A stretch of 64,000 nt of DNA from a virus: UHGV virus genome UHGV-0072281. The stretch is one strand, 5' to 3'. Made by a program: the position numbers and the translations under genes. The notes below the pieces were generated by a model. It worked only from the letters and a program-made list of their open reading frames with translations. It was not told where the DNA came from and made no database searches. Positions 16,221-56,782 of this stretch are shown here, one piece after another (positions within the stretch are counted from its first letter, which is position 1; each line of letters starts with the position of its first letter).

Positions 16221-16227
16221 AAGAGTA

Positions 16228-16253: not shown

Positions 16254-16264
16254 GAATCTTAACA

Positions 16265-16274: not shown

Positions 16275-16276
16275 TA

Positions 16277-37410: not shown

Positions 37411-37432
37411 TGCAGGTGACTCCGTTAATTAT

Positions 37433-38320: not shown

Positions 38321-38343
38321 TGAATACCTCTGACACGTTTCTA

Positions 38344-38553: not shown

Positions 38554-38556
38554 TTC

Positions 38557-38955
38557 TCATCTTCCCGTACACGATTGCGAACAGCCACCATGACAGGTAC
38601 GACTACATGTACCTGTACATGTAGTCGTACATTGACCTATACATGTCCCCGTGCACCCACCAGAACATGAACTAGTACAACCTGAACATCCAGAACTACA
38701 ACCAGAAACACAGTTTGCTGAACATGAGGAACCACAACCTCCAGAAGCATTACCGGTACAACCACCAGAACAACTGGAGCACGTCCAGCTACAGCTACCA
38801 CCACAGTCGTAATGATTTTTAGGTTGCCCGCCAAATAGGTCGACATTATTCGTAGCCTTTCCACGAATATAGTTCTGTACTGCTCCAGTGTTTTTTAGCG
38901 CGGAAGAATCTATATTATCCAAGCGCGCTTTTAAAGAAGATAAACCAATCGCCAT
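38557..38955 (-). CDS. Cys-rich precursor-like peptide B (leader + long CxxxC-periodic core)
   Basis: 132 aa: ~50-aa leader then ~80-aa core with about 20 Cys at regular 4-residue spacing in G/S/T background, beginning DCGGSCSWTCS. Confidence 0.7.
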   Translation of the reverse strand: MAIGLSSLKARLDNIDSSALKNTGAVQNYIRGKATNNVDLFGGQPKNHYDCGGSCSWTCSSCSGGCTGNASGGCGSSCSANCVSGCSSGCSGCTSSCSGGCTGTCIGQCTTTCTGTCSRTCHGGCSQSCTGR

Positions 38956-39017
38956 TTTAACACCTACTGGTTCAGTGCCAGCTAAGGCACATTATAATTC
39001 ATTCTCTGTAAAAAATA

Positions 39018-39929
39018 TCACAATTTTGCCGGAATCCTATTCTTAGCCCCTACTACTCGTCGTATATAATCGTAAGCATCTAAGCCAACCTTTCTGGCTA
39101 AGTCACTACAGCCATGTTGCGTTACGATTTCAACGTTTTTTACTTGATTCTGGACACCGTCAGACTCGATACGTAAACAACGACTACATGTATTACAGGG
39201 TTCATCAAATAACGCGTTTAGCGTAAACGCGCACTCGCTTCGATTGGACGAATTCAGTCTTTCTATATTTTCCTGAATTCTAAAATACCCGTAAATAAAG
39301 TTCATAACGTGATCGGGAGATAACGGTTTTGGCATGTTTTTGTCCAAAACTAGCGACATCTCGCAAAAACCGTAATGGTAGATGTGATTATGTAGCGCAA
39401 TTATATCCTCATACCAGCGTTTATCACCGATACGTTCTCGTGTCAAGACTGCCCAGGTACGAATATTTTTCAATTCGTAAATTGTCTCCAACACCTCGTA
39501 TTGTTTTTCTTCGATAATCCGCATAAATGGACGCTCTGATTCTTTGAATCCGTCCATGCTAAAAAAGATGCTATCGAAACCCTTTAACAACGGTAGATGC
39601 GTTTTACGCATCTTTAAGCCATTGGTGTACAGGTAATGATCACAGCGAGGATACTTCTCCCTTATCTCTTCTATAAGGGCATCAATTTTACGCGAAGCGA
39701 GTAATGGTTCACCTCCCGACCACTGAATATTTGTGATGGTCGGGTTATTTTCCAGCGCCTCGATAATACTTTTCTTTTGTACTTCTGCGGTTGTATCCTC
39801 TCTATGCATGTAATAGGCTCCGCCGCAGAAACTACAGTCCAGATTACATTTGGATGTAGTAATAACATTTAACGTTCTTGGTTCAGAATACAATTGATCG
39901 GATACTGTCGGTGTGGTTAACTCTATCAT
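39018..39929 (-). CDS. Radical SAM enzyme (paralogue C)
   Basis: VITTSKCNLDCSFCGG, WSGGEPLL; immediately downstream of precursor C. Confidence 0.8.
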   Translation of the reverse strand: MIELTTPTVSDQLYSEPRTLNVITTSKCNLDCSFCGGAYYMHREDTTAEVQKKSIIEALENNPTITNIQWSGGEPLLASRKIDALIEEIREKYPRCDHYLYTNGLKMRKTHLPLLKGFDSIFFSMDGFKESERPFMRIIEEKQYEVLETIYELKNIRTWAVLTRERIGDKRWYEDIIALHNHIYHYGFCEMSLVLDKNMPKPLSPDHVMNFIYGYFRIQENIERLNSSNRSECAFTLNALFDEPCNTCSRCLRIESDGVQNQVKNVEIVTQHGCSDLARKVGLDAYDYIRRVVGAKNRIPAKL

Positions 39930-39953
39930 CAGTAATAGTACCTATCTGTTAAA

Positions 39954-40346
39954 TTAAGTCGGTCCTGAACAAGACGCACATGCGCCACTACATCCCGAGC
40001 TACAACGCCCGGAGCATCTACCACTGCATGTAGCGCTGCAACCAGTGCACCCACCAGAACACGTAGCGCTGCAACCAGTGCATTGATTACCGCAGGCGGA
40101 TGAACAGCTTCCAACACACACTGAGGTGCACGTACCAGAACAACTTGTACAACCATGCGTACAACCGTTCGAGCACGTCCAGCTACAGCTACCACCACAG
40201 TCTAATCGACCCGGTGTCCAGCCTGAAAAAGAATCTGCGGCATTGTGAGCTTTTGATGCAACCTGTGGATCGACGCGGGGTCCTGTCGCCATTTGATTCT
40301 CTACGTTGGTGATTCGATCGCGAACGTTTTTAACACTAATCGCCAT
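39954..40346 (-). CDS. Cys-rich precursor-like peptide C (leader + long CxxxC-periodic core)
   Basis: 130 aa: leader MAISVKNVRDRI...GRLD then core CGGSCSWTCS... with about 21 Cys; AAGGA RBS. Confidence 0.7.
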   Translation of the reverse strand: MAISVKNVRDRITNVENQMATGPRVDPQVASKAHNAADSFSGWTPGRLDCGGSCSWTCSNGCTHGCTSCSGTCTSVCVGSCSSACGNQCTGCSATCSGGCTGCSATCSGRCSGRCSSGCSGACASCSGPT

Positions 40347-40412: not shown

Positions 40413-41618
40413 TTATTTCGTACCCGCTTCCGCCTGTACGTCATCACGAGACGTCAAGTTAGCGTTAACGTGTACTGGGGCCTGAACCACACCACCGTAT
40501 TTCTTGTGGAGATAACCGGTATGTGGGTTATCTGCCGCAATGTGGTTTTGTAGGTTCTGGTTCGCCTGACTGATTGCGTTCGTGTTGTTAGCAACTTGCT
40601 TTTTGAGCGCATCCAGGTTCTGTTGTAACTGATCGATTTTCTGATCGGTTTCTTGACCCTGTTGCTCTAACGCGTCAACACGCTGAATAACCTGATTCAG
40701 TTTCGTGTTCAAATCGTTAATGCTCTTTTGCAGCTGTAACACTAACGAGTTCAGGTTCGCTAACGCTAAAGCCATTTTCTGGTAGTTTTGAGCAACCACG
40801 TTAAGTTGGTCGTTCCACGCTTCCAGAGAGTTGACAACAGCGTCAATACGCTTACCTAAAGCTTCATCTGCTTTCTTCAGTGCATTGATTTCCGTAATCG
40901 TTGCGTCGATAGCAGACTGGACGTCACGAATAAGCGCACGGATTTCAGTTTCTGTTAACCCGTTAACCTGATGAATATCAAGATGGTGAACGTTACCGGT
41001 TGCGTTAATGTGTGCATTTAAAGCGTCTAAGAAGTCATTTTTCAGGCTTTCTAAAATCGCTTTAATGTTCTCTAACTGTACCGCGTCACCAGAACTGATC
41101 GCATCTTTAATACCCGCCAATACGGTAATGATATATTCAAAACCGTAAATATCACCTACGTCTTTATACGTCGGTGCAGAAGGGAATGTATCTGGTACGT
41201 TACGCAGGTCTTTAAACGCAACCGTACGGTTATCGAGGTTTAATTCAGCAATCGCCTGTTCGATAGCCACGATGTTCGCAGACTGTGGGCCACCAACGAC
41301 CTGCGCAGATACCGTAATATCTGTTGGAATCGCTGTGTTAGTGACCACCACCGCCATAACAATCTCGCGGTTTTTAGTCAGCTTTTCATAAGTCGGGTGT
41401 GCAAAAATCAACTCATAATCGGTACCACGTTCGTAGGTTGCATCCGGTCGGTTAGCAACGCGTAAACGGAACGTGTCCGCAAAGAACGGGCCGTCAGGAA
41501 AAGCAAAAGCACGGTTTACTTTACCTGTACCTAACGTAATCTGACGCTCCACAGCGTTAGACGTTAGCGAGCCCGTTAAATCTAAAGGATATTGATAAAC
41601 AATGGAGGCCATGGCCAC
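40413..41618 (-). CDS. Fibre-like structural protein with N-terminal shared anchor module and coiled coil
   Basis: 401 aa; N-terminal block (FPDGPFFADTFRLRV...GTDYEL) shared with the three giant proteins upstream; long heptad-like segment; C-terminal NPH motif. Confidence 0.6.
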   Translation of the reverse strand: MAMASIVYQYPLDLTGSLTSNAVERQITLGTGKVNRAFAFPDGPFFADTFRLRVANRPDATYERGTDYELIFAHPTYEKLTKNREIVMAVVVTNTAIPTDITVSAQVVGGPQSANIVAIEQAIAELNLDNRTVAFKDLRNVPDTFPSAPTYKDVGDIYGFEYIITVLAGIKDAISSGDAVQLENIKAILESLKNDFLDALNAHINATGNVHHLDIHQVNGLTETEIRALIRDVQSAIDATITEINALKKADEALGKRIDAVVNSLEAWNDQLNVVAQNYQKMALALANLNSLVLQLQKSINDLNTKLNQVIQRVDALEQQGQETDQKIDQLQQNLDALKKQVANNTNAISQANQNLQNHIAADNPHTGYLHKKYGGVVQAPVHVNANLTSRDDVQAEAGTK

Positions 41619-41652
41619 TCTCCTTTATTCGAGACGTCCTTGTCCCGAGTCA

Positions 41653-44600
41653 TTAAGATGTAAACATAAGATTGAACTGGAGTTTGTCGATATCGCGAGT
41701 TTCTGCTGGATTCACGCCGTCGTACGCGGTCGCTACGTAAACCGTTAGCGTACCGTCAGCGTACGAGGATATTACCGGTGGGTTAGTTCCGGTCTGACCA
41801 TCTCGCACAATGAGTGCAGGCTCGCTGGGAAGATTATCAAACTGCCCTTTAACCGCTTTGTATACCAAACCGGACTGTGCAGATAACTCCGTGTCTGTGT
41901 ACACACAGAACGGTGTATCGATGTCAGCTTGTTTGATAGTGGTACCGGATTCGACATCAACCAACTGTACTGCTCCAAACTTCGTGCGATAACTTTCATA
42001 TTCGTTCTTCGGAATAACAAAAGTAACGTGAACACGAACTTCTTCAGCGGGCTTAAAGCCAGTATGTTCTTTTTCCAAATACTGGTTGGCTGATAGTGTC
42101 ACTTTTTGTTCGGCCATCGAACCACCTGCCTGATTTATTCCGTACCGGGCTTCAACAATACCGGTTGGTGCAGCAAGTCGCAATTTCAGAGTCCGATTCG
42201 CCGTTCCTGGATTACCTGGCACTTGAACGCGCAAACTCAATGCTAAGTAAGCATACGTTCCGGTAGTCGGTTTCGTATACGCACCTATCCATTTCATGTT
42301 CGCAGACGCTGCCTGCGTGTTCTCAGAAGCAATGGCTGTCGTAATGTTAGCAGCTACCGCTTTCTGCCAGAATTGGTCGGCGCAGTTCTCATACGCTACT
42401 CTGGCCACGCTCTTATAACCCGAATACGTTTCCTGAATTGGTAACTTAGGACGCGTCGTGATGCCAGACAATGAACCCCATTTTTGACCGTCAACATACC
42501 CTTCGCCCTTCGACGCAGCCGCCGTAGGTGCTTTAACGGGCTTGTTAACCAGGGTTAATAGAGGACCCGTCTTTCTGTCAAACGCTGCTGCTACATCGTG
42601 TTGGTCGATAATTGCTGCGTGGTCTTCCAGCTCTTTCACACGACCCAAGCGTTTTACTTTGTCGATACTGATATCAGTAATACGGCTGGAATCGGTGGTT
42701 ACTGTCCCGACGAACAGTCTCGTTGAAGTATCGGCTAACTGCTCCAAACCGATGCGGTATTGTGCGGTAGAATCCGACACCTCAGCGTGCACGTAGAACG
42801 TCTGGTTAGCGTGATTGGACGGGAACTCGCTGCTTAAATCCACAGACCACGTTGGGAGTGTGTAGCTGCTGCTACCGAAGTCTAATTTGACTTCTTCTGT
42901 CAAATACAGAATCCAACCTTCCGCTGTCTCCACACCAGCAATAATAACCGCCTGACCACCGGTTGAGAACGTCGTGTCGTTAACGAACTCTGCGGCTGTA
43001 TACGCGTTACCTGAACAGAAAACACGGTCAGCTTTAGAGAAAATCAACGCCATCTTGTCCCAATTACCGGCACCCATATAGCATCCAGATTCTGGGTTAT
43101 GCGCAGGAGCCATCTGACGTAACTGCGACTTACCAGGAACGCGAGACCAACCTGAACCTGGGTCGTAGGTATACTTCGCGGCGTAACCTAGTGCGTTTAA
43201 GTCCCCGATATTTCGGATAGTTAACGTATAAGGTAGCCAGATACCGAAGTTAGTTCCATCCGCAGAAGCGAAAATAGGCTGTCCGACGCGACGGGTCTTA
43301 TTACCAGCCTCCTCTCTTAACGACTGATAACTTAAACCGTAGTCTTTATCCAGGAACCAATCCACCAACTTAAAGTTAGCGGAGTTGAACCGTAAGTAAC
43401 CATTCTCTTTAGATGGACTCACCATGAAGTAATAGATGTCAAGAATTCGACGACCGTTACTTAAGGTTTTCATGCACGAAACTTGCAACAAGTCAAATTC
43501 GCACACGGTGTTGATACCCAACATCCAAAGAGCAAACAATGCATTACCGGTTTGATGGGCAGCACTAATACGTTCGTTCGCGTATCCGTTCGCTTGGCCA
43601 GAAGGTGCACCGTCAACGATCATCCGAATCATTTTCTGTCGATCGGCTTCTTCTAGCGTTAAGCGTTCGGAAGACAACGCGAAGTTACCGTAGATGTTAC
43701 GATACGGGAACGTTTCTGCTTTGGTCAAATACCAACCGTTTAACTGTCCGTGACGCTCCTCAGGAGTCATGCACGCAGCCATACAGCTAAGCTGCTCATA
43801 TAGCGTTGGATCGACTTCACGACGGTTGTTGTTCGGACCGTATCCGCTATAACCCGGAACATCGTAAGGTTTGTTCGGATCAACTTCTACTTCGATGGTG
43901 TAACGGTTACGTGGGTTAGACATCCACACTTTGTTCGAACCACCAATCCCAACAGGATGGGAAAGACCAATGGTATAAATAGAACCACGACCTTTATCCC
44001 AGGTAAACGTTCCTTCGCCTGAGGTATTGTTTGGGTTATCGTAACGCAGATAATCGAAAAATTCTTTGCCTTGTGTTCCTTTAATAGAAACGTTAGGCAT
44101 TTGGTCCGCGTCGTTAATCTGCCAGCAGGAAAGCATCATTCCTGTTCCATTAGGCTTAGCGTACGTTGCAAAACAACGATTGTTTGCTTGACCACCGCCC
44201 CACTTACGGCTGGTTTCTACAGTTGAACCATCCGCGAAAGAGAGTGTAGTAGCATCAGCCTTGATGGGAAAGCGTTCGCGGCCTTCTAACGTAACCTTGC
44301 CCGTCGACGTATCGATTGTAAAACTTGTTGCCCACTGACGAAAGTTAATTTGTGAGCTGTCAGCCGCTGCAAACCACACAGTAGGCATATGGTTCACACG
44401 AATCACGCCGTCGCGCACTGCACAAGCATGGTTACATTCTGGACCGTGAACAAAGTTGCAACCAATTGTCCATTTAGCCCGTGCTTCCGGCGTCAAATAC
44501 GTAAAGAACTGACCCGTTTGTGACTCTTCGGTTTTCTGGCCAATGCGTAGGCAGAGGTTATCTCCGAATTGTCCCATCTCCCCGTTTAGTGTTACGCGTT

Positions 44601-46836
44601 CAAACTCCAGCGTGGTGCTAGTAGACAAATCGTCCTTACGTAGACGCCAAGCTGCTACTGCGTAAGCAGAGTTATTTACCGTAGAGCGGAGAAGATAAAC
44701 GTAATCCTCAACCAACACAACATCATCGGCTTCTGGCCACGGATTCCAGGTTTGTTCCACAGTACCGCTGGGGTTGCCGTTACGGTACACGGGCATCGTA
44801 ACGCGACATACCACCGTGTGTTTAGTGTGATCCATCGAACCATTAAACAACACCAAATAACGGTTATTATCAGAACCCAGACAAATAATCGCTTCCTGAC
44901 CACCGATCAATATAGCTTTCAGGGTCACTCCAGGATATTTACTCATCCCGGCAGGGTGATATTTCACTGAGGTCTGCTGCGGATTTACAAACGCGTTTGA
45001 CGTGTTAATGTCAGCATAGCCGTAATAAATGGCTTCTGTACCCGGTACGCCGTTAGAACCGTTACGGAGCGAATAAACCTTACCCTGCTGATACCCAACA
45101 ACCCCTTTTTGATAAGACTGGTTTTTGGTATAACCCGAATAGTTACCTAGCGCTGGGATAGGTAAGAAGTTCTTGTTACCGAACTTCGCACCACCTACCG
45201 TCCACGCCGGTAAGATGGTATTCAGTTTATCAGAGACTTTCTTAATCTCTTTTGCGAACAGCCACCCTTGACGCGACGTGACAGCTTTATCGTTAGTAGT
45301 GTCAATCGCATCCCAGAGCTGCAAGATACCGTCAACCGATGCACTACCAATTGGAATGTTATCCAAGTCAGCAGTGGTGTGTGTATGCGTCTTCAAACTC
45401 TTGTTTTTCAACACGTTCGTTAACGCTTTCGTCACCGGCTTAGCACTTGGCGTGGTGTTATCCATCTTATCGGTACCGAAATCGGTTTTCGTTAAGGTTA
45501 ACACCATACTGTCGCCTACCTTAACAAACCCTTTACCGTTAACGGTATAGTCATCGTCAACGTACAGGTCCAAGCGGTCTTTTAATTCGGTTACGGCTTT
45601 CTGGGAGATAGCAGTACCTAACGCCGCAGACGTGGAGATATTCGTAATCGAGAACAACCCATAAACTGATTCGGTCGCTGTGGGAATATTCGCGTTTAAC
45701 GTAACCGGGTTAGTCTGTTTTGCGGTACCGTACGGTTTTACAGTGTCTGACGCTTTGAAATACGCGTTTGCTTCGAGCAACGTTACTGACGTCAGGTACA
45801 TGTTCACCATTTCTGGCGTAACCAGATACACGGAGTTATAAACCGGCGCTAATACATCCTGTTCTGACCCCGAGTGAACCCAAAGCGTATTCAGACCCGC
45901 ACTGAATTCAACCGCTAAACCTGATTCGTTGTTGTCCTGGTCTGCTTTAATCACCAACGGTTGTGGCGAGGTAATTAACCACTTATCACCGCGAATACTG
46001 ATGATGTGGCCACCTGACGTTTTAAACGTTAATTCAATACCGTTAGTAGTGCCCCATCGACCGTAAACAGTACCGAGGGCTTCACCCATTAACTGGTCAA
46101 CGTCTGATTGCTCAATACCCGCTGAACCCATCAGCGTAGCCAACTCGTCAATCGTCAACCCAAACGCTTTTGTAGCGTCAACAGCGCGGCCTAATACCGG
46201 GAGAGCAGCAATGTCGTCAGTGGTATAATGATGAGCGTTAGGATTCCGGTGGTGTTGGTATAACTCTTCGTCGAAAACCTTTTTACCGTTCTCGTAAATC
46301 AGGTTAGTAACTTCACTAAACGCAGCATCTAACTCTGTAGAACGCTTAATGATTTTCTTACGAATGTCTTCTAACGCCTTAACAACCTCATCTCTCAGAA
46401 TAGCTTCTTCTAAGTTAGCAGGCGGGTCGATTGGTTGAATAACCGGCGCATACGCCATTAGTTCAGACCAGTCCACGTTACGTGGGTCTTTCAGGTCAGT
46501 ACGAACTAAGAACTTCCCGATTTCAGATTGCGGTACACGATATTGACGTGCTACCCCTAAAATCTCATATTCGATTTCTGTTGCAGTAAGCAACATAAAC
46601 CCGCCGTAAATCTGATCTTGTTCAGCTTCTGCGAGTTCTTTAAAGTAATAGCCTAAATAGTAGTCCAACCCCTCAATCAGAGTACGACGTCCGTTAGGCG
46701 CGGTATCGTCGGCTACTGTGAGTTTTAATCCGATACGATAAAAAGGTCCTTCAGGTGGAATGACCACGTTAAATCGGTTAGGGTACGTTGCTGTGCTTAG
46801 CGTACCGTTAAACTGCGCCGCGTCTTCTCTCGGCAT
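41653..46836 (-). CDS. Giant tail fibre / tail spike-like structural protein
   Basis: 1727 aa; N-terminal block PPEGPFYRIGLKL...GLDYYL homologous to neighbours; AGGAG RBS. Confidence 0.65.
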   Translation of the reverse strand: MPREDAAQFNGTLSTATYPNRFNVVIPPEGPFYRIGLKLTVADDTAPNGRRTLIEGLDYYLGYYFKELAEAEQDQIYGGFMLLTATEIEYEILGVARQYRVPQSEIGKFLVRTDLKDPRNVDWSELMAYAPVIQPIDPPANLEEAILRDEVVKALEDIRKKIIKRSTELDAAFSEVTNLIYENGKKVFDEELYQHHRNPNAHHYTTDDIAALPVLGRAVDATKAFGLTIDELATLMGSAGIEQSDVDQLMGEALGTVYGRWGTTNGIELTFKTSGGHIISIRGDKWLITSPQPLVIKADQDNNESGLAVEFSAGLNTLWVHSGSEQDVLAPVYNSVYLVTPEMVNMYLTSVTLLEANAYFKASDTVKPYGTAKQTNPVTLNANIPTATESVYGLFSITNISTSAALGTAISQKAVTELKDRLDLYVDDDYTVNGKGFVKVGDSMVLTLTKTDFGTDKMDNTTPSAKPVTKALTNVLKNKSLKTHTHTTADLDNIPIGSASVDGILQLWDAIDTTNDKAVTSRQGWLFAKEIKKVSDKLNTILPAWTVGGAKFGNKNFLPIPALGNYSGYTKNQSYQKGVVGYQQGKVYSLRNGSNGVPGTEAIYYGYADINTSNAFVNPQQTSVKYHPAGMSKYPGVTLKAILIGGQEAIICLGSDNNRYLVLFNGSMDHTKHTVVCRVTMPVYRNGNPSGTVEQTWNPWPEADDVVLVEDYVYLLRSTVNNSAYAVAAWRLRKDDLSTSTTLEFERVTLNGEMGQFGDNLCLRIGQKTEESQTGQFFTYLTPEARAKWTIGCNFVHGPECNHACAVRDGVIRVNHMPTVWFAAADSSQINFRQWATSFTIDTSTGKVTLEGRERFPIKADATTLSFADGSTVETSRKWGGGQANNRCFATYAKPNGTGMMLSCWQINDADQMPNVSIKGTQGKEFFDYLRYDNPNNTSGEGTFTWDKGRGSIYTIGLSHPVGIGGSNKVWMSNPRNRYTIEVEVDPNKPYDVPGYSGYGPNNNRREVDPTLYEQLSCMAACMTPEERHGQLNGWYLTKAETFPYRNIYGNFALSSERLTLEEADRQKMIRMIVDGAPSGQANGYANERISAAHQTGNALFALWMLGINTVCEFDLLQVSCMKTLSNGRRILDIYYFMVSPSKENGYLRFNSANFKLVDWFLDKDYGLSYQSLREEAGNKTRRVGQPIFASADGTNFGIWLPYTLTIRNIGDLNALGYAAKYTYDPGSGWSRVPGKSQLRQMAPAHNPESGCYMGAGNWDKMALIFSKADRVFCSGNAYTAAEFVNDTTFSTGGQAVIIAGVETAEGWILYLTEEVKLDFGSSSYTLPTWSVDLSSEFPSNHANQTFYVHAEVSDSTAQYRIGLEQLADTSTRLFVGTVTTDSSRITDISIDKVKRLGRVKELEDHAAIIDQHDVAAAFDRKTGPLLTLVNKPVKAPTAAASKGEGYVDGQKWGSLSGITTRPKLPIQETYSGYKSVARVAYENCADQFWQKAVAANITTAIASENTQAASANMKWIGAYTKPTTGTYAYLALSLRVQVPGNPGTANRTLKLRLAAPTGIVEARYGINQAGGSMAEQKVTLSANQYLEKEHTGFKPAEEVRVHVTFVIPKNEYESYRTKFGAVQLVDVESGTTIKQADIDTPFCVYTDTELSAQSGLVYKAVKGQFDNLPSEPALIVRDGQTGTNPPVISSYADGTLTVYVATAYDGVNPAETRDIDKLQFNLMFTS

Positions 46837-46931
46837 CGTAAAGACTCCTACTTTTTAAATAAAATGGATACCCCTCCCCATTACAGGGAGGGGTTACCTA
46901 CGGACACACAACTGCCCGCAGGCAGCCTGTC

Positions 46932-49900
46932 CTAAGTACGATCCCCTAACTGCTTCCCGTTAAGTTCTCGTTTCAGTACAGAAAGTATCCATTTCCACGC
47001 TTTACTCGTGATATGGTACGGATTGCGTTTCTCCATTAAGAACTGCTTTTCACCGCTACGCAGTTCAAAGCTCTGCGCATTAAGGTAGTCCTGACGATAG
47101 ATTTTCTCATCAAAAACTTCCAATGAACAGGTAAAGTTAAGTTCGTACCCTTCAGGATTATTACCCGGCGGGTCTAAGACAATATAGATGTCCTGGCCTA
47201 CACGTAAATCCGTTGGAGTGATGGTAATCGCTTTACCCACATCGGCGTTAGTCGACAGAGCAAACTCCGCACTGTCCGTAGACGCTAAGAATGGGTCTTT
47301 CCCTGCGTCGCCAATAATCACTTTACCTGGCCAGTTACTTTTTATCGTTCCCGTCACTTTTGCAATTCGATATTGCTGTTTATCAACACCTTGTGCAAAA
47401 CGGAGAATGAGTTTGTGACGATAACGACTTGCAGCAACCTTAGTCGTACTCCACACATTGTTCCAGGAAGTGTGCAGTTCATTGTTCTTCGCCATCAACG
47501 CACCACGAGACAGTTTACGGTCAAAGAACTGCGCAGGTAACTGCCCATCGTGAGAAACCGCAACACTTCCCTGACCAGTTGGCAAGGCAATGCTCTCCGT
47601 GGCACGGTATTTTTGACTAATCTCATAAGTCGCAGGGTCAATCACAGACTGACTATAATCAGCGTCTTTGTTATCAGCCAAATACCCAACGGATGAATCC
47701 AGATACGACTCAAACAACGAACGTAAGTAATGATACTTATCAATGTCGATATTGTTCGTAACCGGATCAATCAGTGCGTGGCTAATCGTTACTCGGCATT
47801 TCGCGCTCAGTTCTTTAAACGATAATCCTATTCCGTCACCGGTGAAATAATCCACTAAGTCGAACGGGAATTGAATTTCCAACTGACGTTGTTTAACTGT
47901 CGTCGTCCCAAACTGCGAGAACGACAACGCTAAACGTAACACACGCGTACTTACGTTATAACGGTAACGAATCATCCCACGAGGTGCATGGTTTGCAGAG
48001 ATTTTATCTCGGGCGGCGCCCCAGCCAATCAAATCGAGAATCGCAGCATTCGTTTCTTCACCGTTGAACAACACATCCTTAAACGTTGCATTCACCGCTG
48101 TTTCCCCAGACTCTTCCATTACCAACGGAATGTCAGTAACGGCAGAATCTGAACGGGAACCAATCCCCAGCTTACACGCTTTGGCAGTTAGGTCAATGCG
48201 CAGATAGCGACGTTTAACGCTACTCCCTTGCGTTGACGAGCATAGAACCAAATCCGGCGCAGCAGCAAGGGCTTGCGTCCCACCAACATCGTCAACATCG
48301 AATGCAAACGAGCCTTCGAAAGTCGGTGCGTTGTTTTCTTTCGGGTTAAACGGTGTAAACCAACAATACGGCGTAGCACCTTCAGGTATCACAACGTATT
48401 GAAGACTGGATTTCACGTTTTGGTTGTGTGCGTAAGTATAAAGACCGCGACTGACAAGATGGAAAACATCACCTGTACCGGCTGTTAACGCTTTCCTAAA
48501 GATACACGCTCTCGGTTCGGCAATAGCACGGTTTAATAACGGCAAACGTGGGTTATCCGTTAGCGTCCAGTCCACAGAACTGAGTCCGTGCGCTTTACGA
48601 GTGTCGATGTGTTCACTAACCTCGGCACTTTTCCCGAAATCGAACGTGGTTTCGAACCCAACTGTTTTATTCGCGTAATTCTCACCAGCAACAATATCAA
48701 CGTAACCGATATAACCACGTTCAGGATCAACTGCGATGCTCTGAATAGGTTCAGCACGCGAATATAGAGAGCCTGTGAGCATGTTAACGTACAGATAGTG
48801 ACGAATCCCTACGTGGGTTGTAACAAACTCCTGGAGAAGCTCTACGCGCGTTTCAGGGCCACTGAAGTAAACAGGGTAATCACCGTCGTAAACTTCAAAT
48901 TGCACAGCTGCTGATTTTGCAGTGTCACTGCATTCTGCTTTAACAGCGATTGTGTAATTTTCAACATCTAACGACGTTGTGTAGTTCATTAACAACGGAG
49001 ATTCACCGGTAGCGGCCACAACACCATTTACATAAATGGTTATCCTTCCACCGCCAGCGGCGTAAACAAACAGCCTATTCTGATAAGCTTTGACCCGTAT
49101 TTTAGCCAACACTGATACAACGGACTGTTCACCCATCTGTGTAGCGCTTTTACCTACCGGAACTGACTGAAACCCCATTGTTGGAGGATCAACAATTCCA
49201 TCCCAACTAATCCCAGTACCTCTACTAACTTTCCCCGTAGGCCAAGTCAGCTCAAGCTGGTTGTTCGGTGAGAACCAGTTAAACATCGGGGTGGTTTGTA
49301 AGTCAATCGCACCAGTAACGACACCGTCGGCCTTTCCTCCATTCAGCAAATAGAAGTATTTCAAATCCTGAACGGAGATTGTCGTACCCTGGCTATTAAA
49401 ACGCCAGTCTGCGCCTTTTACAGCAGCGAAATCAGTTACTGTTCCTTCTTTCGCGTTTGCTATCGCAGCGGCCACCACATCTAAACGTGCTGAAAGCTCT
49501 TTTAAGATGTTCGGTACCACTGCTCGGTTTTCAACTAAACCGTTCTGGTTAGTTGCGTAACGGCCAATACCGTAAATAGACTGCGAGGCTTTATAAATGC
49601 CTAACTCTGACCAGCCGTGATGGTGGCCGACATCTGCTAAACCGCTAACCGATGTATTCAATGCGGTAGACAACGGTTTGTCAAGGTCTGCGGTGTTGTC
49701 CGCTTGCCCTAATCCCAGATCGGCTTTCGTGATTGTCCTGGAACCGTCGTCCATCGCTTTACCGTTAATCATGGTCGTTTTAGTCACGTACCCTGATAAG
49801 TCGGTTGAATACGGCGTTAATGACGCAGGGGTTGCAGCAACCCCAACCGTTTCTGTGCCTTTACCGGTTTTAAGTTTAACGACACCTTTTTCAGTGGTTG

Positions 49901-51116
49901 ACGCTTTCGTCGGGTCGATAGCCCCCACGATAGGATCGGCTCGAGAACCTTTACCAGTGAAACTGATCCCATTACGGCCTTCGATATACACTTTGGAGTC
50001 ATCAGGGTCGCTACCGCCACCAGAACCCGCATCAGGGTCTTGTTGGTATTCCATAAGTGCGGTGGTGGTCAGTAACGGGTTACCGTTCAGGGTGAGTTTG
50101 TTCATCCCTAAAACATCGCCCGTTGACTCGATGCGTAACATGTTTTTACCCGCACGCCAGTTAATGTAACGTCCCGCGCTAGTGCCTTCCAAATGACCTA
50201 CCGCCAATACCACAGAACCGTTGGATTTTAACGTAAAGCCGTCATTCGCAAAAATGATTTCTGACTCACCGTTTTTCGAACGGAATTGTGCGCGGTTTCC
50301 TGACACCGTACAGTTAAACACACCCCGTACTTCCGAAGAAATCCAGTGGGAGATATACGTGTCAATAACCGACTGTGGTAAACGAAACGCTTTCAGCTCA
50401 TCCGTCAACGCTTTCAACTTTAACCCGTACGCCATAAAGGTGTCAGGGGTTTTCAGGTTAACGGGATGTGCATTAATTTGTGCACTTGTGGTTTCGTGTG
50501 GGTTCGTCGCGGCAATATGTGCTGGGTAGTTAAACGCTTCGATTTCTTTACCCAACGCGGTCACTAACGCTTTAACTTCAGCTAATTTATCTTTAATTAG
50601 CTGGTTAGCGTCATCGGTTTTCAGCTCGATATCGTGAATCGCCGACGCTAAGTATTTTTTGTTCAGCAAATCCGCCCAGGACGTTGCCGCAGGCGTAGCT
50701 GGGTATAGCGACGGTCTACCGTCTAACAACAACCAGTCTGCACTGACTGGGTTATTCAAATATTTCACCAACTCGTCGAGCATCTCAACGAACGGGTCGT
50801 AGAACGTACCGCCGAGCATTTGTCCTTCAAAGGTTACGATGCCTTTGATGGATGGGTTGATAAGGTGTACCCCACAATACACGTTGGCTGCTACCGAGTC
50901 ATCCAGTTCCGTCAGCTGATATTGTAGTTCGTAGTCCACCCCACGACTCAGTGGGGTGGTTGAACCCGGTTGTCTGACGACTAAGTCTTCAAAGAACGGG
51001 CGATGGTCTAAAATCACCACCCGGTCGTTGTTGTTTTCTGACCCGATGATACGCTCCTCTAAGAAGTGATTCTCGGTTTTCGTCCCCCGAGGATCGTAAG
51101 GATACGCTTTCATCAA
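46932..51116 (-). CDS. Giant tail fibre / tail spike-like structural protein
   Basis: 1394 aa; N-terminal block DHRPFFEDLVVRQ...GVDYEL homologous to neighbours. Confidence 0.65.
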   Translation of the reverse strand: MMKAYPYDPRGTKTENHFLEERIIGSENNNDRVVILDHRPFFEDLVVRQPGSTTPLSRGVDYELQYQLTELDDSVAANVYCGVHLINPSIKGIVTFEGQMLGGTFYDPFVEMLDELVKYLNNPVSADWLLLDGRPSLYPATPAATSWADLLNKKYLASAIHDIELKTDDANQLIKDKLAEVKALVTALGKEIEAFNYPAHIAATNPHETTSAQINAHPVNLKTPDTFMAYGLKLKALTDELKAFRLPQSVIDTYISHWISSEVRGVFNCTVSGNRAQFRSKNGESEIIFANDGFTLKSNGSVVLAVGHLEGTSAGRYINWRAGKNMLRIESTGDVLGMNKLTLNGNPLLTTTALMEYQQDPDAGSGGGSDPDDSKVYIEGRNGISFTGKGSRADPIVGAIDPTKASTTEKGVVKLKTGKGTETVGVAATPASLTPYSTDLSGYVTKTTMINGKAMDDGSRTITKADLGLGQADNTADLDKPLSTALNTSVSGLADVGHHHGWSELGIYKASQSIYGIGRYATNQNGLVENRAVVPNILKELSARLDVVAAAIANAKEGTVTDFAAVKGADWRFNSQGTTISVQDLKYFYLLNGGKADGVVTGAIDLQTTPMFNWFSPNNQLELTWPTGKVSRGTGISWDGIVDPPTMGFQSVPVGKSATQMGEQSVVSVLAKIRVKAYQNRLFVYAAGGGRITIYVNGVVAATGESPLLMNYTTSLDVENYTIAVKAECSDTAKSAAVQFEVYDGDYPVYFSGPETRVELLQEFVTTHVGIRHYLYVNMLTGSLYSRAEPIQSIAVDPERGYIGYVDIVAGENYANKTVGFETTFDFGKSAEVSEHIDTRKAHGLSSVDWTLTDNPRLPLLNRAIAEPRACIFRKALTAGTGDVFHLVSRGLYTYAHNQNVKSSLQYVVIPEGATPYCWFTPFNPKENNAPTFEGSFAFDVDDVGGTQALAAAPDLVLCSSTQGSSVKRRYLRIDLTAKACKLGIGSRSDSAVTDIPLVMEESGETAVNATFKDVLFNGEETNAAILDLIGWGAARDKISANHAPRGMIRYRYNVSTRVLRLALSFSQFGTTTVKQRQLEIQFPFDLVDYFTGDGIGLSFKELSAKCRVTISHALIDPVTNNIDIDKYHYLRSLFESYLDSSVGYLADNKDADYSQSVIDPATYEISQKYRATESIALPTGQGSVAVSHDGQLPAQFFDRKLSRGALMAKNNELHTSWNNVWSTTKVAASRYRHKLILRFAQGVDKQQYRIAKVTGTIKSNWPGKVIIGDAGKDPFLASTDSAEFALSTNADVGKAITITPTDLRVGQDIYIVLDPPGNNPEGYELNFTCSLEVFDEKIYRQDYLNAQSFELRSGEKQFLMEKRNPYHITSKAWKWILSVLKRELNGKQLGDRT

Positions 51117-51126
51117 AAAATTCTCC

Positions 51127-54100
51127 TTAATCGCGAATGATTACCGCCTGCACTAAATTGTTGGTGTCGATAAACGACATTACGCGCTCCTTGTTAAGAT
51201 AAGGAGGTATCGGTAACGCAGCGTAATCCGCCAGGTTGTTATTAAACTCGGTTGCCACTAGCGCATTAAGCGTTTCAGGGTCTGAGCTTGTCCCGGCCAA
51301 TTCCATAACACGTACACGATTTAACGAGGAATAGTTGCTGATATAATCCAACAGCGTACCGTAGAGTTTATTCCCGGTTATGCTGTCCGCCGTAGAGCGG
51401 ATATTGGCACGCACTTCGTCCTCATAAAGTCCCCCTAATCCGTAGTAAATAGGGGTATACGGATCGTTAACGATAGGCGCGAGGTTGAACCCGGTTAAAC
51501 GGTCGGTCAGCGAGATTTTCTGCGTAGTACCACCTACCGCCGTACAGCTTACGTATTTATCTGCGGCAGATAAATACACCACAATAGTGTAAACAGTACC
51601 TGCTAAGGTCAGCGTTGCGTTAAACGTTAATTCGTTATTCGCATCACGCGTATGGCTAAATGACACATCGGGTTGTAACGTACTCCACGGTGCAGGTGTA
51701 ACACGTTTCGTTGGCGTGAAACCTAACACCACAGATTTCCCGTTACCGAAGTTTAAACCAAACCCGGCGTAACAATATTCACCATTACTGTCAGTTAAAC
51801 GATAGCCGCGAGTGATAAGTAACGACAACCGCATAAACTCGCCATCGGTGTTTTTCCAACAACCTAAAATGGTTTCTAACACCGTGCCGGTTTTTGCGTT
51901 GCTTTCGGTTTCCCAACTGACTCGCATCCCCGCATTGCTAAATAGGGGGAACAGGTTGTGGATAAATCCATGAACGTTATCACTTACCCCTTTCGCGTCA
52001 AACATCCACTTCGCCGTAAGCTGATCGTATTTCACACCGTCGAGCGCTTTATAACCGTCTCCAACCACATAACGCCAGTCTGCTTCACCACGCACAACCG
52101 CTTGGAGTCCAGAAGCCCAGCAGGGCGCACCTACTGTTAAATTGCTTAACCCCAACACCGCGCGCGAGGCATAACGTTGAATGTGTGCGTTATCGTTAGC
52201 GACGTGGTCTTTCAGCTCACGGAAATCGCCTAACCGCGTCACGTTACGCAACTCCACTACGTCCACTTCGGAAAGATCATTAACAACGAGCCTTCCCACA
52301 CGCGTCATGGTATCCGTCTCAGCTTGATTATAGCTGTCGTGAATAATGTACTTCGCTTTGTTATCGACAATGTCAACAAAAATCCCTGCGTAAACTTCCT
52401 TATTCAGATTCGGGAAACGTTCGGTGACGTTAACCGACATCAACGGTACGTCGTACGTTTCACCACCAATGAAATACGTGGAAGCAGGAAGTGTCACCAG
52501 GATATTGTCTTTAACCGTAACGTCAATTAAGTCGTTACCAGACTTACCAAAACGAATAATGTCAATGCGAGCGCCTGAGTCAACACCACCGACAGTGTTC
52601 TCCAAATCTTCAATCTGGGAAGTCTGCGCCATCACCACACTACTATCGAGTGCTAAAGTGTCATCATCCACATCCAGACCGAATTTAATCAGACCCCGTT
52701 TCGTGGTGTCTGCGTTAGCAACACCGAATACGGAAGACGGGTGTTGGTGAACCTTCGGTGAGTATTTGTCCAGCTCGGTCTGCTGTGCAACAGAAATCGG
52801 TAAGTCAACGTCCGGGGTATTCGCAACGTTACCTAAACCAAAGGTAATTTTGTCGATAGTAACCGAACTGGTAAGCTGCATGTCGTTGATGTACGACTTG
52901 GCGGCAACTAACTTACCGGTAAACTCTGCGTCCAGTTTTTCAATTAACGCGGGTGTCGCTGCAAGGTTTTCAGCCGTACCGAATTCGTCCGTTAACTGCC
53001 AGCAGGCTAAGGTAGTAACGTCATTGGCAACCGGAAGGATAAACGTTACGACAAAGGGCGATGCTTTAATCCCGCTGCCAGTAAGTTCTACGGTAGACGT
53101 AGACGCACCGTAGAACAGACCTGTACCGCCTGCGGTATTACCCGGCAAATACGGCCCGACTGTAGTGGGGTCTAAGAGCTTCTTACCACGCCACAGTAAT
53201 CCACGGTCATCAGGATATAGCACAAGCTGGTTATCGCCCGCCTGTAACGTTACCGGGTTGTTACCCACGTTAACGTCAGTAGAACCTTGACCGATGAACT
53301 TAATGGATTTCGGATCAACGACAAACTGGGCACCTAAACGTGTCTCGTCAACAACATCAGGTGCTTTCTTAATGGTAACCGTGTTACCTTTGTTTTGCGA
53401 ACTAATGGTGACAGCATCAGCAACGTTGTTAATCCACGTTTTAAAATGATATTGATTTTCCAACGCTTCTAGCGCAGAATCCATGTTATCAAAATTAATT
53501 CTGGCACTGTAAGTTTTACCGTTTACCGTAACGACAGCATCGAACACGTTCCCCGTGCGCTTCAACTGGAAACGTAATGAGAAATCGCTGTTAGGTATTG
53601 CCGGATCAGGAGCTTGAGAAATATACCTTACCTGCGGAACTGTACCAACAGTATTAAGGCTTAGCGAAACTTCAATAGAGATAGTATCGCCCCAGATTCC
53701 GGCTTTTATCTCGACAAACTTGCCAGCGATTGTGCCCGGGTTCTCGTAAAACCGCATAATCGCGGAACCGACCGCCTCATTACCCGACGCAGTTTTTATA
53801 CCAGTGACAATAAAGTCAATATCTTGCAGGTTAGCGGGTACCGCATTAAAAGAAGCACTAAATCCATTCTTCGTTCCTGTGTAACGAAGCGCGCCGTGAT
53901 ACCTGTGACCACTACTAACATAGTTTTCGCTAAAATAAGGGTTCACGTATTTAGACATCGAAACCGGATCAACTTCTGTCGTGAACGAAGTAAAACCGGG
54001 CAGCGTTCCAATGGTTCCGTCGGCCGTTTTCGTAGTTGACGTGCGCAGTAGTTTCTTTTGCGCAATCAATGTTTCTTGCGTTGGATACTTAGCATTAACA

Positions 54101-55452
54101 TAATCTGTTAACTGCGGCTTCGTTTTTCCGTAAGCTAACGCTGTATCCGTCGCAATACCATTCAACTCTAACGCACGGATCGCCCCCCACGTGTCGCTGT
54201 GCGGGTTGTCCTTACGTGTAACGTGTTCGTGTGCGGGTGCGTTACGATACAACTGCTCAACTAACTGATGGTACTTAACGATTAACTGATAAACGTCATT
54301 ACTTACGTCAGCTTCTGGCGAACCAGGTAACGCAAGGAATTGAGCGTAATCGTTTTCAGCCGCCCACCAGTTTAAGTTAACGTTGGTTTTGTATTTCAGC
54401 CACTTCGCAACGTCTGTTTTGCTGTAACCTGCTGAGAATTCGTCTGGCGGTGTGTCAACGTTAAACGTATAGTCCATGGACTGTTTGTTAGTCGTCACCT
54501 CGATAACGTATACACCGTTACCCGGTTGACGGACAACGCTAAACGTTAACTCGCCTTTTAATTCATCGTCGGTCAAACCGTTGATTAACGTATAATCGTA
54601 ATCGGTTGAACCACTGCCTAACGCAACCGTCAGTCGTAGGCCAATTTTACGTTGTTTTAATTGGAGACGAAGGATACTTGCGCCACCGTTCGCGTAGCAC
54701 AACATCCAATCGATTTGTTCATTCGGGTTAATACTCCCCATATTCGGAAAAATAGCCGGAATACGGTATTTCATCGACAGGGAATATTCATTTAACGTGG
54801 TGGTTTTGTACGTAACGGAGAAACGACGTTTGGCGGTGTTGTAGGTATACCCACCTTTGTTATCGTACGTTGCGTACTGTTCAGACGTGATAACCGTACC
54901 ATTAGCACGATGTTCGATATCTAACGTGTTGCGCGCAATCGGGTCTAACCGATTCACCACGTTGCCTAACGAATCACCTAAGCCTGCAATGGCCTGCATT
55001 AATTCCAGTTCACCTTTCCAGTTTTCCCAGTCGAACTGAATGTCAACCGGTGGAAAGTAAACATCACCAATAACGGTATCCCATTGACACGCAGACGGGT
55101 ATTTATCTTTATTGAGTTCGCGTTCTGCGGTAATCTGTTCTTGGGTCGCTTCACCACAACCTACGGCGTGGTAATCTACCGTGAAATTCGATTTGTATTT
55201 GTCGTTAACAATCCAAATCATCCCGTGCACGAGATAGGCTGTGCGCAACATACCGGTCTCGTACGGGTGTGTAATAACGTAATCGTCGCCTAAGGTCAGT
55301 ATTTTGCCGCCGCTCTTGACCACCAGGGATGTGGTGAAAAAAGGGGCGTGGGCAGGTACCAACATTCGGTACTTCGTACCAATGACGGCGACCGCTTCAC
55401 CGGTTATTTTATTCCCCGGTTCTTTGAAGTGTGGGTCTAGGACGACAGCCAT
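51127..55452 (-). CDS. Giant tail fibre / tail spike-like structural protein
   Basis: 1441 aa; N-terminal block AHAPFFTTSLVVK...GDDYVI homologous to neighbours; first gene of minus-strand operon. Confidence 0.65.
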   Translation of the reverse strand: MAVVLDPHFKEPGNKITGEAVAVIGTKYRMLVPAHAPFFTTSLVVKSGGKILTLGDDYVITHPYETGMLRTAYLVHGMIWIVNDKYKSNFTVDYHAVGCGEATQEQITAERELNKDKYPSACQWDTVIGDVYFPPVDIQFDWENWKGELELMQAIAGLGDSLGNVVNRLDPIARNTLDIEHRANGTVITSEQYATYDNKGGYTYNTAKRRFSVTYKTTTLNEYSLSMKYRIPAIFPNMGSINPNEQIDWMLCYANGGASILRLQLKQRKIGLRLTVALGSGSTDYDYTLINGLTDDELKGELTFSVVRQPGNGVYVIEVTTNKQSMDYTFNVDTPPDEFSAGYSKTDVAKWLKYKTNVNLNWWAAENDYAQFLALPGSPEADVSNDVYQLIVKYHQLVEQLYRNAPAHEHVTRKDNPHSDTWGAIRALELNGIATDTALAYGKTKPQLTDYVNAKYPTQETLIAQKKLLRTSTTKTADGTIGTLPGFTSFTTEVDPVSMSKYVNPYFSENYVSSGHRYHGALRYTGTKNGFSASFNAVPANLQDIDFIVTGIKTASGNEAVGSAIMRFYENPGTIAGKFVEIKAGIWGDTISIEVSLSLNTVGTVPQVRYISQAPDPAIPNSDFSLRFQLKRTGNVFDAVVTVNGKTYSARINFDNMDSALEALENQYHFKTWINNVADAVTISSQNKGNTVTIKKAPDVVDETRLGAQFVVDPKSIKFIGQGSTDVNVGNNPVTLQAGDNQLVLYPDDRGLLWRGKKLLDPTTVGPYLPGNTAGGTGLFYGASTSTVELTGSGIKASPFVVTFILPVANDVTTLACWQLTDEFGTAENLAATPALIEKLDAEFTGKLVAAKSYINDMQLTSSVTIDKITFGLGNVANTPDVDLPISVAQQTELDKYSPKVHQHPSSVFGVANADTTKRGLIKFGLDVDDDTLALDSSVVMAQTSQIEDLENTVGGVDSGARIDIIRFGKSGNDLIDVTVKDNILVTLPASTYFIGGETYDVPLMSVNVTERFPNLNKEVYAGIFVDIVDNKAKYIIHDSYNQAETDTMTRVGRLVVNDLSEVDVVELRNVTRLGDFRELKDHVANDNAHIQRYASRAVLGLSNLTVGAPCWASGLQAVVRGEADWRYVVGDGYKALDGVKYDQLTAKWMFDAKGVSDNVHGFIHNLFPLFSNAGMRVSWETESNAKTGTVLETILGCWKNTDGEFMRLSLLITRGYRLTDSNGEYCYAGFGLNFGNGKSVVLGFTPTKRVTPAPWSTLQPDVSFSHTRDANNELTFNATLTLAGTVYTIVVYLSAADKYVSCTAVGGTTQKISLTDRLTGFNLAPIVNDPYTPIYYGLGGLYEDEVRANIRSTADSITGNKLYGTLLDYISNYSSLNRVRVMELAGTSSDPETLNALVATEFNNNLADYAALPIPPYLNKERVMSFIDTNNLVQAVIIRD

Positions 55453-55519: not shown

Positions 55520-56782
55520 GTGACTACTGCTTATCAAGTACGGCCTGACAGCGCTTTTGGCTTCTCTCGAGAGACCCGTACCTGGGGAGCCATCGACGTC
55601 ACGCAACCCTTAGAAACCTTGTGTTCTGATTACCATATTTTCGAAGTCGGTCTGAGTGCGCTTGGTAAAGACTATACGTTAATTAGCCAATATCACCTCG
55701 CTGACTTACAAAACCGTACCGATACTTTACAAGACTGGCTGAATGAAAAAGCCGGTATCGTTATCTCTGAGTTGAATGACGGTTTACCGACGTTAGAGTT
55801 TGATTGGGCACACTACCAATCGATTAATGCCGATGTTCCGGTAGAAACCTACCTGTGTCCTCCCGGTTATCACTACAGTCAAGATTTCAGTATAGACGAT
55901 GCTGACGACGTTGTGATAGTGTGTGAAGATAAATGGAAAGACAAATACCGTAACGGGGTGTTGTACAACATCAACGGACAGTGGGTACCGCATCAATCCG
56001 ATACTGTTGGTGTACGTTTACCAGGTGCGGGTAAGATAGTACGTCGTGCAGGGACACCGGATATCGGGTGCATGGTCTTTAGTAAATTGGGGAATGTTAA
56101 AACGTACCCCATTGCTAACTTGACCTTAAACAAGCTCGACACCACCCGTGACTATTATTCCACGTTAATGATTTCTTTACCGGAATCTATTACGGGTAAA
56201 ACCGTGGGGTTTGTTATCGGGGGACTGATACACTGGTTGCCTGTTACTGGGTACTTCTCCGACAAAGCCATTATGGTGTCGCTACCGAACTTTGACGTTG
56301 CGCGTACTGTGTTAGAAACGCGTCGTTATTACGACTGGGATAGCATAGGCGTTGGCGATTTGTCATCACCGACCAGTGTGCAGCGTATCCGTAACCCAGA
56401 AACGTTAAAGGCGCTTTTAACCCACGAGTCGTCGTTTATCTTTACGGTGGATAATCCGTACCTGGAAGAAGAAGTTGTGGGGGTTTCTCACAACGCTATC
56501 TGGGGACGTTTATACCTTAAAGATCCTAATGACCCTGACGGTGAGAAACAACTGGGGTATCTGTTAAACCGCTTCGGTAAAACTGTTGCTTATTGGCCGA
56601 CGTGGGAAGAAGGGGAATGGGTATTTAACACCACGGAATTCGACAGTCAAAACTACGTGTTCCGTGAGGCCCGTTGGTATAACCAGAATAAAATTAACGA
56701 TGCACAGGCAATCGTAGGGCCTTTCGGTCCCTGGGAAAAAGTCTATTTGGAAATGCATCGTTTCCGTGCAAGAAAAAAATAA
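55520..56782 (+). CDS. Hypothetical protein
   Basis: GTG 55520 with GAGGA RBS; track ORF begins at 55304 but that would overlap the divergent minus-strand gene by ~150 nt. Confidence 0.5.
   Translation: MTTAYQVRPDSAFGFSRETRTWGAIDVTQPLETLCSDYHIFEVGLSALGKDYTLISQYHLADLQNRTDTLQDWLNEKAGIVISELNDGLPTLEFDWAHYQSINADVPVETYLCPPGYHYSQDFSIDDADDVVIVCEDKWKDKYRNGVLYNINGQWVPHQSDTVGVRLPGAGKIVRRAGTPDIGCMVFSKLGNVKTYPIANLTLNKLDTTRDYYSTLMISLPESITGKTVGFVIGGLIHWLPVTGYFSDKAIMVSLPNFDVARTVLETRRYYDWDSIGVGDLSSPTSVQRIRNPETLKALLTHESSFIFTVDNPYLEEEVVGVSHNAIWGRLYLKDPNDPDGEKQLGYLLNRFGKTVAYWPTWEEGEWVFNTTEFDSQNYVFREARWYNQNKINDAQAIVGPFGPWEKVYLEMHRFRARKK

Follow-up and report, generated by a model that had tools for sequence, protein, structure and literature searches.

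Four adjacent genes with a phiKZ gp131-like N-terminal domain in a jumbo phage of the SPN3US type

Four consecutive genes in a phiKZ-related phage

We analysed a 64,000-nucleotide stretch of the virus genome UHGV-0072281 (the window), in which positions 40413-55452 contain four consecutive open reading frames (ORFs), all on the minus strand, encoding proteins of 1441, 1394, 1727 and 401 amino acids (aa) that we call p1441, p1394, p1727 and p401. The initial annotation had read these as large structural proteins sharing an N-terminal module, and both its coordinates and its ORFs proved correct. The genes, in the direction of transcription, are:

51127-55452, minus strand: p1441, 1441 aa, ortholog of SPN3US gp170 and Asesino gp190; gp131-family fibre protein
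46932-51116, minus strand: p1394, 1394 aa, ortholog of SPN3US gp169 and Asesino gp189
41653-46836, minus strand: p1727, 1727 aa, the longest paralog, ortholog of SPN3US gp168 and Asesino gp188; all-beta distal part
40413-41618, minus strand: p401, 401 aa, ortholog of SPN3US gp167 and Asesino gp187

Comparison with the orthologs indicates that two of the start codons should be moved, the true starts likely being ATG 41612 for p401 (giving 399 aa) and ATG 51113 for p1394 (giving 1393 aa).

The window belongs to a phiKZ-related jumbo myovirus of the SPN3US/Erskinevirus type. The four genes correspond to SPN3US gp170, gp169, gp168 and gp167 in order, orientation and size, and orthology and synteny extend across SPN3US gp167-171, Asesino gp187-191, CR5 and pVa-21. 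SPN3US (paralog family C plus gp167), the Erwinia phages Asesino, phiEaH2 and Stratton and the Cronobacter phage CR5 each have one-to-one orthologs, with order and orientation preserved, and the SPN3US-type phages also share protein lengths (1727 and ~1390 aa), the gp171/gp130-like gene, the baseplate gene and the radical S-adenosylmethionine (SAM) cassette described below. Protein identity to these orthologs is only 40-77%; for p401 it is 77% with SPN3US 'virion structural protein 20' and 76% with the corresponding Asesino protein. At the DNA level similarity to collection phages is patchy, i.e. scattered patches of 70-77% identity covering ≤6% of the locus. The closest relatives are Salmonella enterica isolate assemblies with ~224-kb contigs, in which p401 is 98% identical.

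A shared N-terminal domain

All four proteins matched phrog_2163 at their N-termini, with E values of 6.5e-16 (p1441), 7.6e-30 (p1394), 2.8e-44 (p1727) and 2.5e-103 (p401). Because some of the direct pairwise BLAST values were weak (E = 0.5 between the p1441 and p1394 N-termini, and 0.13 between those of p1727 and p401), we built leave-one-orthogroup-out hidden Markov models (HMMs) from the first 130 aa of the orthologs and the phiKZ proteins, excluding the orthogroup under test in each case. These HMMs recovered p1441 at 2e-12, p1394 at 6e-17, p1727 at 3.6e-4 and p401 at 6e-14, and the p1727 orthologs at 3e-6 and 1e-5; with the full HMM, the p1441 N-domain gave E = 1e-45. When the family HMM was used in a six-frame scan of all 64 kb, only these four ORFs were found, the next best match having E = 0.69.

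The same domain was recovered in phiKZ. BLASTP against the N-termini of phiKZ gp131/gp135 gave 6.7e-8 for p1441, 6.6e-9 for p1394, 1.4e-4 for p1727 and 8.7e-14 for p401, hhalign probabilities of the four N-domains against the phiKZ gp131-like N-domain were 82-98%, and an HMM built only from SPN3US-type sequences retrieved phiKZ gp131, 133, 134 and 135 at 1.5e-17 to 2.8e-10. On these profile comparisons, the domain common to all four proteins is the phiKZ gp131-like N-terminal domain of ~125-130 aa. The module is thus longer than the ~70 aa originally proposed, although the N-terminal similarity itself was significant and the invariant P-F and G-x-D-Y positions were present in the alignment. 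The weak pairwise values are what would be expected if the similarity were due to chance or composition, but this reading, to which we give next to no credence, is refuted by the PHROG matches, the leave-one-out HMMs, which were significant for all four N-termini, and the confinement of the module to these ORFs in the six-frame scan; the module is also found in ten related phages, where it has the same position. The positions of the domain are:

55063-55452, minus strand: p1441 anchor domain, aa 1-130 (HMM)
50727-51116, minus strand: p1394 anchor domain, aa 1-130 (HMM)
46447-46836, minus strand: p1727 anchor domain, aa 1-130 (HMM)
41208-41618, minus strand: p401 anchor domain, aa 1-137 (HMM; beta-sandwich in the AlphaFold2 (AF2) model, predicted local distance difference test (pLDDT) score ~88)

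A Foldseek search of the PDB with the p401 model gave no significant match, so the N-domain fold could not be linked to any solved structure.

Segments beyond the N-terminal domain

According to the initial annotation the proteins diverge completely after the shared block, and this did not hold: a helix with an N-P-H motif and further mosaic segments are common to them. NPH motifs had been noted in several of the proteins and they are indeed present, but the feature is wider in scope, as a helix ending in N-P-H or N-A-H follows the N-domain in 4/4. Helix-forming sequence comes before the motif in each of the four proteins and in phiKZ gp131-135, where a homologous N-domain is likewise followed by a helix, the one that makes up the six-helix bundle, and by N-P-H motifs.

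54178-54300, minus strand: p1441 helix and N-P-H, aa ~385-425
50472-50624, minus strand: p1394 helix and N-P-H, aa ~165-215
46222-46389, minus strand: p1727 helix and N-P-N-A-H, aa ~150-205
40980-41138, minus strand: p401 helix and N-A-H / N-V-H, aa 161-213

In p1441 the motif is displaced to residue 416 by a domain inserted after the N-domain. This protein also has a lineage-specific insertion of ~200 aa (aa ~495-705; 53335-53970, minus strand) relative to SPN3US gp170 and Asesino gp190, and this orphan insertion accounts for its being ~200 aa longer than SPN3US gp170. No PHROG homolog was detected for the insertion, which resembles neither the domain inserted earlier nor other parts of p1441, so that a test for domain duplication in this protein was negative.

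Among the mosaic segments, p1394 and p1727 could be aligned to about residue 510 (BLASTP E = 1e-18; hhalign 98.9%), and p1394 and p401 aligned across ~220 aa (2.5e-8). Residues 341-520 of p1394 correspond to 752-924 of p1441, where the same segments come after the inserted domains, and BLASTP and hhalign matched p1727 1290-1459 to p1441 968-1140 (a segment of ~120-150 aa). The shared mid segment contains fibre-type motifs and has PHROG 'tail fiber' matches.

Conservation and predicted structure of the distal parts

The anchors are 72-87% identical to those of the SPN3US and Asesino orthologs. The distal parts of the three giants reach only 36-51% identity, with 17-40% at the extreme C-termini, and p401 is uniformly conserved along its whole length (73-88%). 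The variable, fast-evolving portions are therefore the distal parts of the three giants, which makes them obvious targets for host-range engineering. This gradient, together with the orthologs, supports the earlier proposal that these are tail or baseplate fibre proteins reusing one conserved anchor before differing distal parts.

The p401 model comprises a confident beta-sandwich N-domain, a disordered linker, a helix at 161-205 and a second helix at 223-361. The latter, of ~140 residues, is of a length typical of coiled coils; a C-terminal NPH is present, and the model shows no distal binding domain. Distant homologs of p401 terminate in Peptidase_S74, a chaperone domain of fibres and spikes.

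Searches with the full set of proteins were largely negative. Pfam returned nothing for the three giants and only coiled-coil noise for p401, and no usable match came from searching PDB sequences with either single sequences or ortholog profiles. For p1727, the modelled part had only beta-propeller and beta-sandwich structural matches.

44200-45102, minus strand: predicted beta-propeller of p1727, approximate, aa ~579-879 (model residues ~50-350, pLDDT 80-90)

The model thus predicts a beta-propeller of the glycosidase/lectin type in p1727. Of the folds that the initial annotation had proposed looking for in the C-terminal parts, the lectin type found a candidate here; beta-helix and depolymerase-type folds were not among the structural matches of the p1727 model, which covers only the distal part. 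The solved propeller of phiKZ gp131 was also not among its top matches.

The gp130-like gene and its neighbourhood

Upstream of the four genes, and transcribed divergently from p1441, lies a gene whose product matched phiKZ gp130 with E = 1.3e-11 over 340 aa; its true start is GTG 55520.

55520-56782, plus strand: homolog of phiKZ gp130 and SPN3US gp171 (420 aa, GTG start), the fibre-docking platform of the outer baseplate
57242-58207, minus strand: gene for a baseplate assembly protein (phrog_3216); marks the upstream end of the block

Across ten phiKZ-like phages there are 2-4 copies of the N-module per locus. At those loci the annotation tables list an adjacent divergent gene of ~410–430 aa, homology to gp130 having been tested for the gene in the window only. 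The pairing of a gp130-like gene with N-module genes was seen in phiKZ, SPN3US, Asesino, CR5, pVa-21, Goslar, RAY, PCH45 and RP12.

Within the four-gene block, the interval between p1394 and p1727 contains a strong GC-rich hairpin of 11 bp (46870-46894, minus strand). A scan for sigma-70 promoters was uninformative, as the counts equalled those of shuffled sequences and phiKZ-like phages use their own polymerases.

Comparison with SPN3US and phiKZ

Publications on the orthologs and on phiKZ have already described the family, where it sits in the virion and what it does structurally, and the core observation is therefore the rediscovery of a described family in a new phage. In SPN3US, gp168-170 form 'paralog family C', baseplate/tail-fibre candidates similar to phiKZ gp131, and are missing from tailless particles (PMC5694885). 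Mass spectrometry identified SPN3US gp167-171 as virion proteins (PMC5694885, PMC5105663); gp168 belongs to the tail, and gp171, likewise associated with the tail, is essential (PMC5105663). The published family C has three members and leaves out gp167, although gp167 shares the N-domain. Our analysis adds the gp167-type 400-aa coiled-coil protein to the anchor family of SPN3US paralog family C, and allows four 'hypothetical' giants of a Salmonella-associated jumbo phage to be named as a gp131-family fibre set with an adjacent gp130-like docking protein.

The arrangement in phiKZ is similar: there are four paralogs in a row beside a divergent gp130 homolog, and the longest member contains a beta-propeller, a feature that p1727 may share at the level of fold (the C-terminal propeller of gp131 is seven-bladed). 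The phiKZ proteins can be aligned with those of the window only over the first ~130-220 residues, and the size classes differ, phiKZ having one long (771 aa) and three short (~460 aa) members and the window phage three giants and one short member. In profile comparisons p401 resembled the short phiKZ gp133-135, while p1441 and p1727 resembled gp131, so that the SPN3US-type set appears to mirror that of phiKZ.

The 2026 structural atlas of phiKZ describes 12 fibre sites, at each of which six gp131-like N-domains, together with a bundle of six helices, dock under gp130, and its authors read each site as three copies of gp131 plus one each of gp133, gp134 and gp135 (PMC13250141). The docking sites are of two kinds, unit1 and unit2 (PMC13250141).

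Assembly of the four proteins

We consider it probable that the four genes encode gp131-family fibre proteins that co-assemble as subunits of a single hetero-oligomeric fibre. By analogy with phiKZ, the N-domains would anchor the proteins by docking beneath the gp130-like platform, and each fibre would be built on a base of six N-domains and six helices contributed by different paralogs. A stoichiometry of three p401 with one each of p1441, p1394 and p1727 would mirror that proposed for phiKZ, with p401 supplying a conserved coiled-coil stalk and the three giants supplying differing distal domains, carbohydrate-binding or carbohydrate-cleaving, that would set the host range. The spectral counts per unit mass (SC/M) for the SPN3US virion, where gp167 had 85 spectra and an SC/M of 1.90 compared with 1.00-1.41 for gp168-170 (PMC5694885), lean towards three copies of p401 but are not decisive. 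This contrast between 'three giants plus one short' and 'one long plus three short' gives a testable stoichiometry for hetero-oligomeric fibres in SPN3US, a genetic model with amber mutants.

Several results weigh against this assembly. The ratio of SPN3US gp167 to the giants in spectral counts is ~1.4-1.9 and not 3, and the composition of the phiKZ hexamer was itself obtained by rigid-body fitting of AlphaFold models into low-resolution density (PMC13250141). Some relatives have only 2 or 3 paralogs, and any stoichiometry must therefore vary between phages. The p1727 N-domain is the weakest family member (3.6e-4 in the leave-one-out test), the p1727 propeller is a match at the level of fold, with 6-9% identity, a mean model pLDDT of 70 and 15 sequences, and the distal parts of p1394 and p1441 had no Pfam or PDB sequence matches.

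The initial annotation had envisaged several separate receptor-binding proteins displayed on the virion, as in CBA120, phi92 or rV5. Each paralog would then form its own homotrimeric fibre or spike, and the N-domain would be an interchangeable plug for equivalent or different sockets in the baseplate. In favour of this, the paralogs do have unlike, fast-evolving distal parts, phages carry between 2 and 4 paralogs as would be expected of swappable modules, the spectral counts of the four SPN3US proteins are roughly similar, and the docking sites of phiKZ, twelve in all, are of two kinds. However, both types of phiKZ site show six N-domains and a six-helix bundle rather than three; since N-domains of several paralogs come together at each site, subunits of one fibre are likelier than separate, interchangeable spikes. 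In addition, the set of three giants and a ~400-aa protein is intact from Salmonella and Erwinia phages to the Vibrio phage pVa-21, and p401 is a predicted coiled coil that lacks a distal binding domain. The CBA120, phi92 and rV5 proteins share the general idea of a conserved N-terminal attachment part with differing distal parts, but Pfam, PDB and Foldseek searches detected no relation in sequence or fold to the anchors in the window, nor was a depolymerase-type fold among the matches of the modelled distal part of p1727, and the comparison fails at the level of protein family. The architecture also differs, CBA120-type homotrimers branching off one another and the phiKZ precedent being mixed six-chain bundles. 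Independent fibres are therefore unlikely, although they are the most serious of the alternatives.

It is more improbable still that the four proteins are mainly a structural scaffold of the baseplate, with receptor binding left to the T-even-like fibre and gp38-type adhesins encoded at 11358-16780 or to the DUF7941 proteins. The window does encode this separate classical fibre with two Gp38_N adhesins as well as three DUF7941 proteins, the SPN3US authors' wording was 'baseplate/tail fiber candidate', and phiKZ gp131 was first placed at the baseplate periphery (PMC5105663). Against a purely structural role stand the distal gradient of variability, which is typical of host-range proteins, the predicted lectin/glycosidase-type propeller in p1727, and the fibre-type motifs and PHROG matches of the shared mid segment.

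A CxxxC and radical SAM cassette downstream

The more novel item of the region is not the set of fibre paralogs but the co-directional cassette downstream of it, which encodes cysteine-repeat (CxxxC) proteins and radical SAM enzymes:

33996-40346, minus strand: co-directional cassette downstream of the fibre genes; link to the fibres tentative
39954-40346, minus strand: CxxxC protein p130, 21 Cys at spacing 4
39018-39929, minus strand: radical SAM gene, 303 aa
38557-38955, minus strand: CxxxC protein p132, 20 Cys at spacing 4
38344-38553, minus strand: CxxxC protein p69, 4 Cys at spacing 4
37433-38320, minus strand: p295, protein of unknown function
36487-37410, minus strand: radical SAM gene, 307 aa
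35181-36503, minus strand: radical SAM gene, 440 aa, SPASM-type C-terminus
34646-35218, minus strand: p190, protein of unknown function
33996-34670, minus strand: DUF4376 protein, at the downstream end of the cassette
33965-33991: bidirectional terminator-like hairpin that ends the minus-strand block

The products p130, p132 and p69 have a conserved N-terminal part of ~50 aa followed by Cys at every fourth residue. The 303-aa radical SAM protein is 63% identical to the 307-aa one, and its gene represents an additional copy that has been inserted between two of the CxxxC genes; there are only two radical SAM genes in SPN3US, Asesino, CR5 and L005, a relative with a 98% identical p401. For the 440-aa enzyme the best NCBIfam match was TIGR04115 (CXXX-repeat maturase; E = 1.3e-34, 120 bits against a cut-off of 350), and it also matched PapB far below cut-off. 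The CxxxC proteins matched the NCBIfam models of CXXX-repeat targets only at E ~5e-3.

The cassette resembles the CXXX-repeat radical SAM system (TIGR04114, TIGR04117, TIGR04115), which has the same Cys spacing of four residues (p130 and p132 contain 20-21 such Cys) and an adjacent SPASM-type radical SAM enzyme, although the window proteins score far below the curated cut-offs. They differ from the CXXX-repeat targets in their conserved ~50-aa N-terminal part, and in context, since cassettes of the window type are located in phage tail-fibre modules whereas the TIGR04114/TIGR04115 system is found in bacterial clusters for ribosomally synthesised and post-translationally modified peptides (RiPPs).

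Conservation of the cassette beside the fibre genes extends over the whole SPN3US-like clade, but other phiKZ-like phages do not share it. The 16-kb stretch gp124–gp137 of phiKZ contains no radical SAM cassette, tblastn with the 440-aa radical SAM enzyme found no match in any Pseudomonas phage record, and in Vibrio phage pVa-21 tail-fibre assembly proteins occupy its position. A profile of the CxxxC N-terminal part found just 31 representatives among 1.84 billion proteins. Distant relatives have longer, tail-fibre-like N-termini and come from unrelated phages, where they lie beside radical SAM genes within tail modules (loci L008, L010 and an ERZ22666135 contig). One of them adjoins a Collar-domain fibre with which it has its first 40 residues in common (E ~1e-6), at a locus that also carries an ortholog of the 440-aa enzyme (34% identity, E = 2e-59); another directly follows a lambda gpJ-like protein, and another a collagen-repeat protein. 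Within the window, the CxxxC N-terminal 'leader', a possible anchor shared with the fibres, had no match beyond the three genes.

The initial annotation had suggested that the radical SAM locus may be tied to the fibres. The relatives with fibre-like N-termini beside radical SAM genes in tail-fibre modules give this circumstantial support, though they are not proof, and this context makes radical SAM modification of fibre-associated proteins a better reading than a free-standing peptide natural product. We tentatively propose, as a possibility that we would put below even odds, that the cassette is a fibre-maturation module in which p130, p132 and p69 are small tail-fibre or fibre-associated virion proteins whose Cys segments are cross-linked (e.g. 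by thioethers) by the radical SAM/SPASM enzymes. Searches of the open-access full-text literature for radical SAM with phage fibre, CXXX repeat or TIGR04115 returned nothing relevant, and in the same literature we found no description of enzymatic covalent hardening of a phage receptor-binding structure. If the cassette does modify fibre components, it would represent a new kind of virion maturation chemistry.

The CxxxC ORFs are poorly represented in existing annotation. In SPN3US (L002) they lie at 18275-18667, 18678-19082 and 19098-19304, and in Asesino (L001) at 7599-7982 and 7189-7590, both on the minus strand; in the RefSeq records they are unannotated or replaced by ORFs in the wrong frame or on the wrong strand, e.g. 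SPN3US ACQ60_gp100 (18751-19086) is out of frame. They would therefore not have been identifiable if the SPN3US proteomics searched the deposited annotation. In a 222-kb relative (L017 8001-8633) the p69-type protein is 210 aa long and has an extra C-terminal domain of ~140 aa; in L005 (12074-12740) this protein appears to be split into two ORFs, and the extra domain is absent from the window.

Other fibre-related genes in the window

A second, unrelated fibre system occupies 11358-16780 on the plus strand and consists of a 1438-aa fibre followed by two gp38-type adhesins (Gp38_N). The fibre contains a Phage_fiber_2 repeat, Gp34_trimer and a Peptidase_S74 chaperone domain; tblastn with its low-complexity N-terminus gave no match. 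A patch of ~150 bp (16277-16429) has 85-89% DNA identity to the tail-fibre adhesin gene found in Stx-type lambdoid phages, an indication of horizontal acquisition.

Three proteins encoded on the plus strand (16883-17395, 32820-33359 and 33394-33924) belong to the DUF7941 family, proposed in a 2026 preprint on Goslar to form filament 'clouds' anchored at the baseplate. This 'fibre cloud' family was considered as the identity of the four proteins at 40413-55452 and rejected, as DUF7941 matches these other ORFs instead. Two DUF4376 proteins are encoded at 19541-20101 (plus strand) and 33996-34670 (minus strand), and each ends a fibre-related block at its downstream side, a position that may point to a role in fibre assembly.

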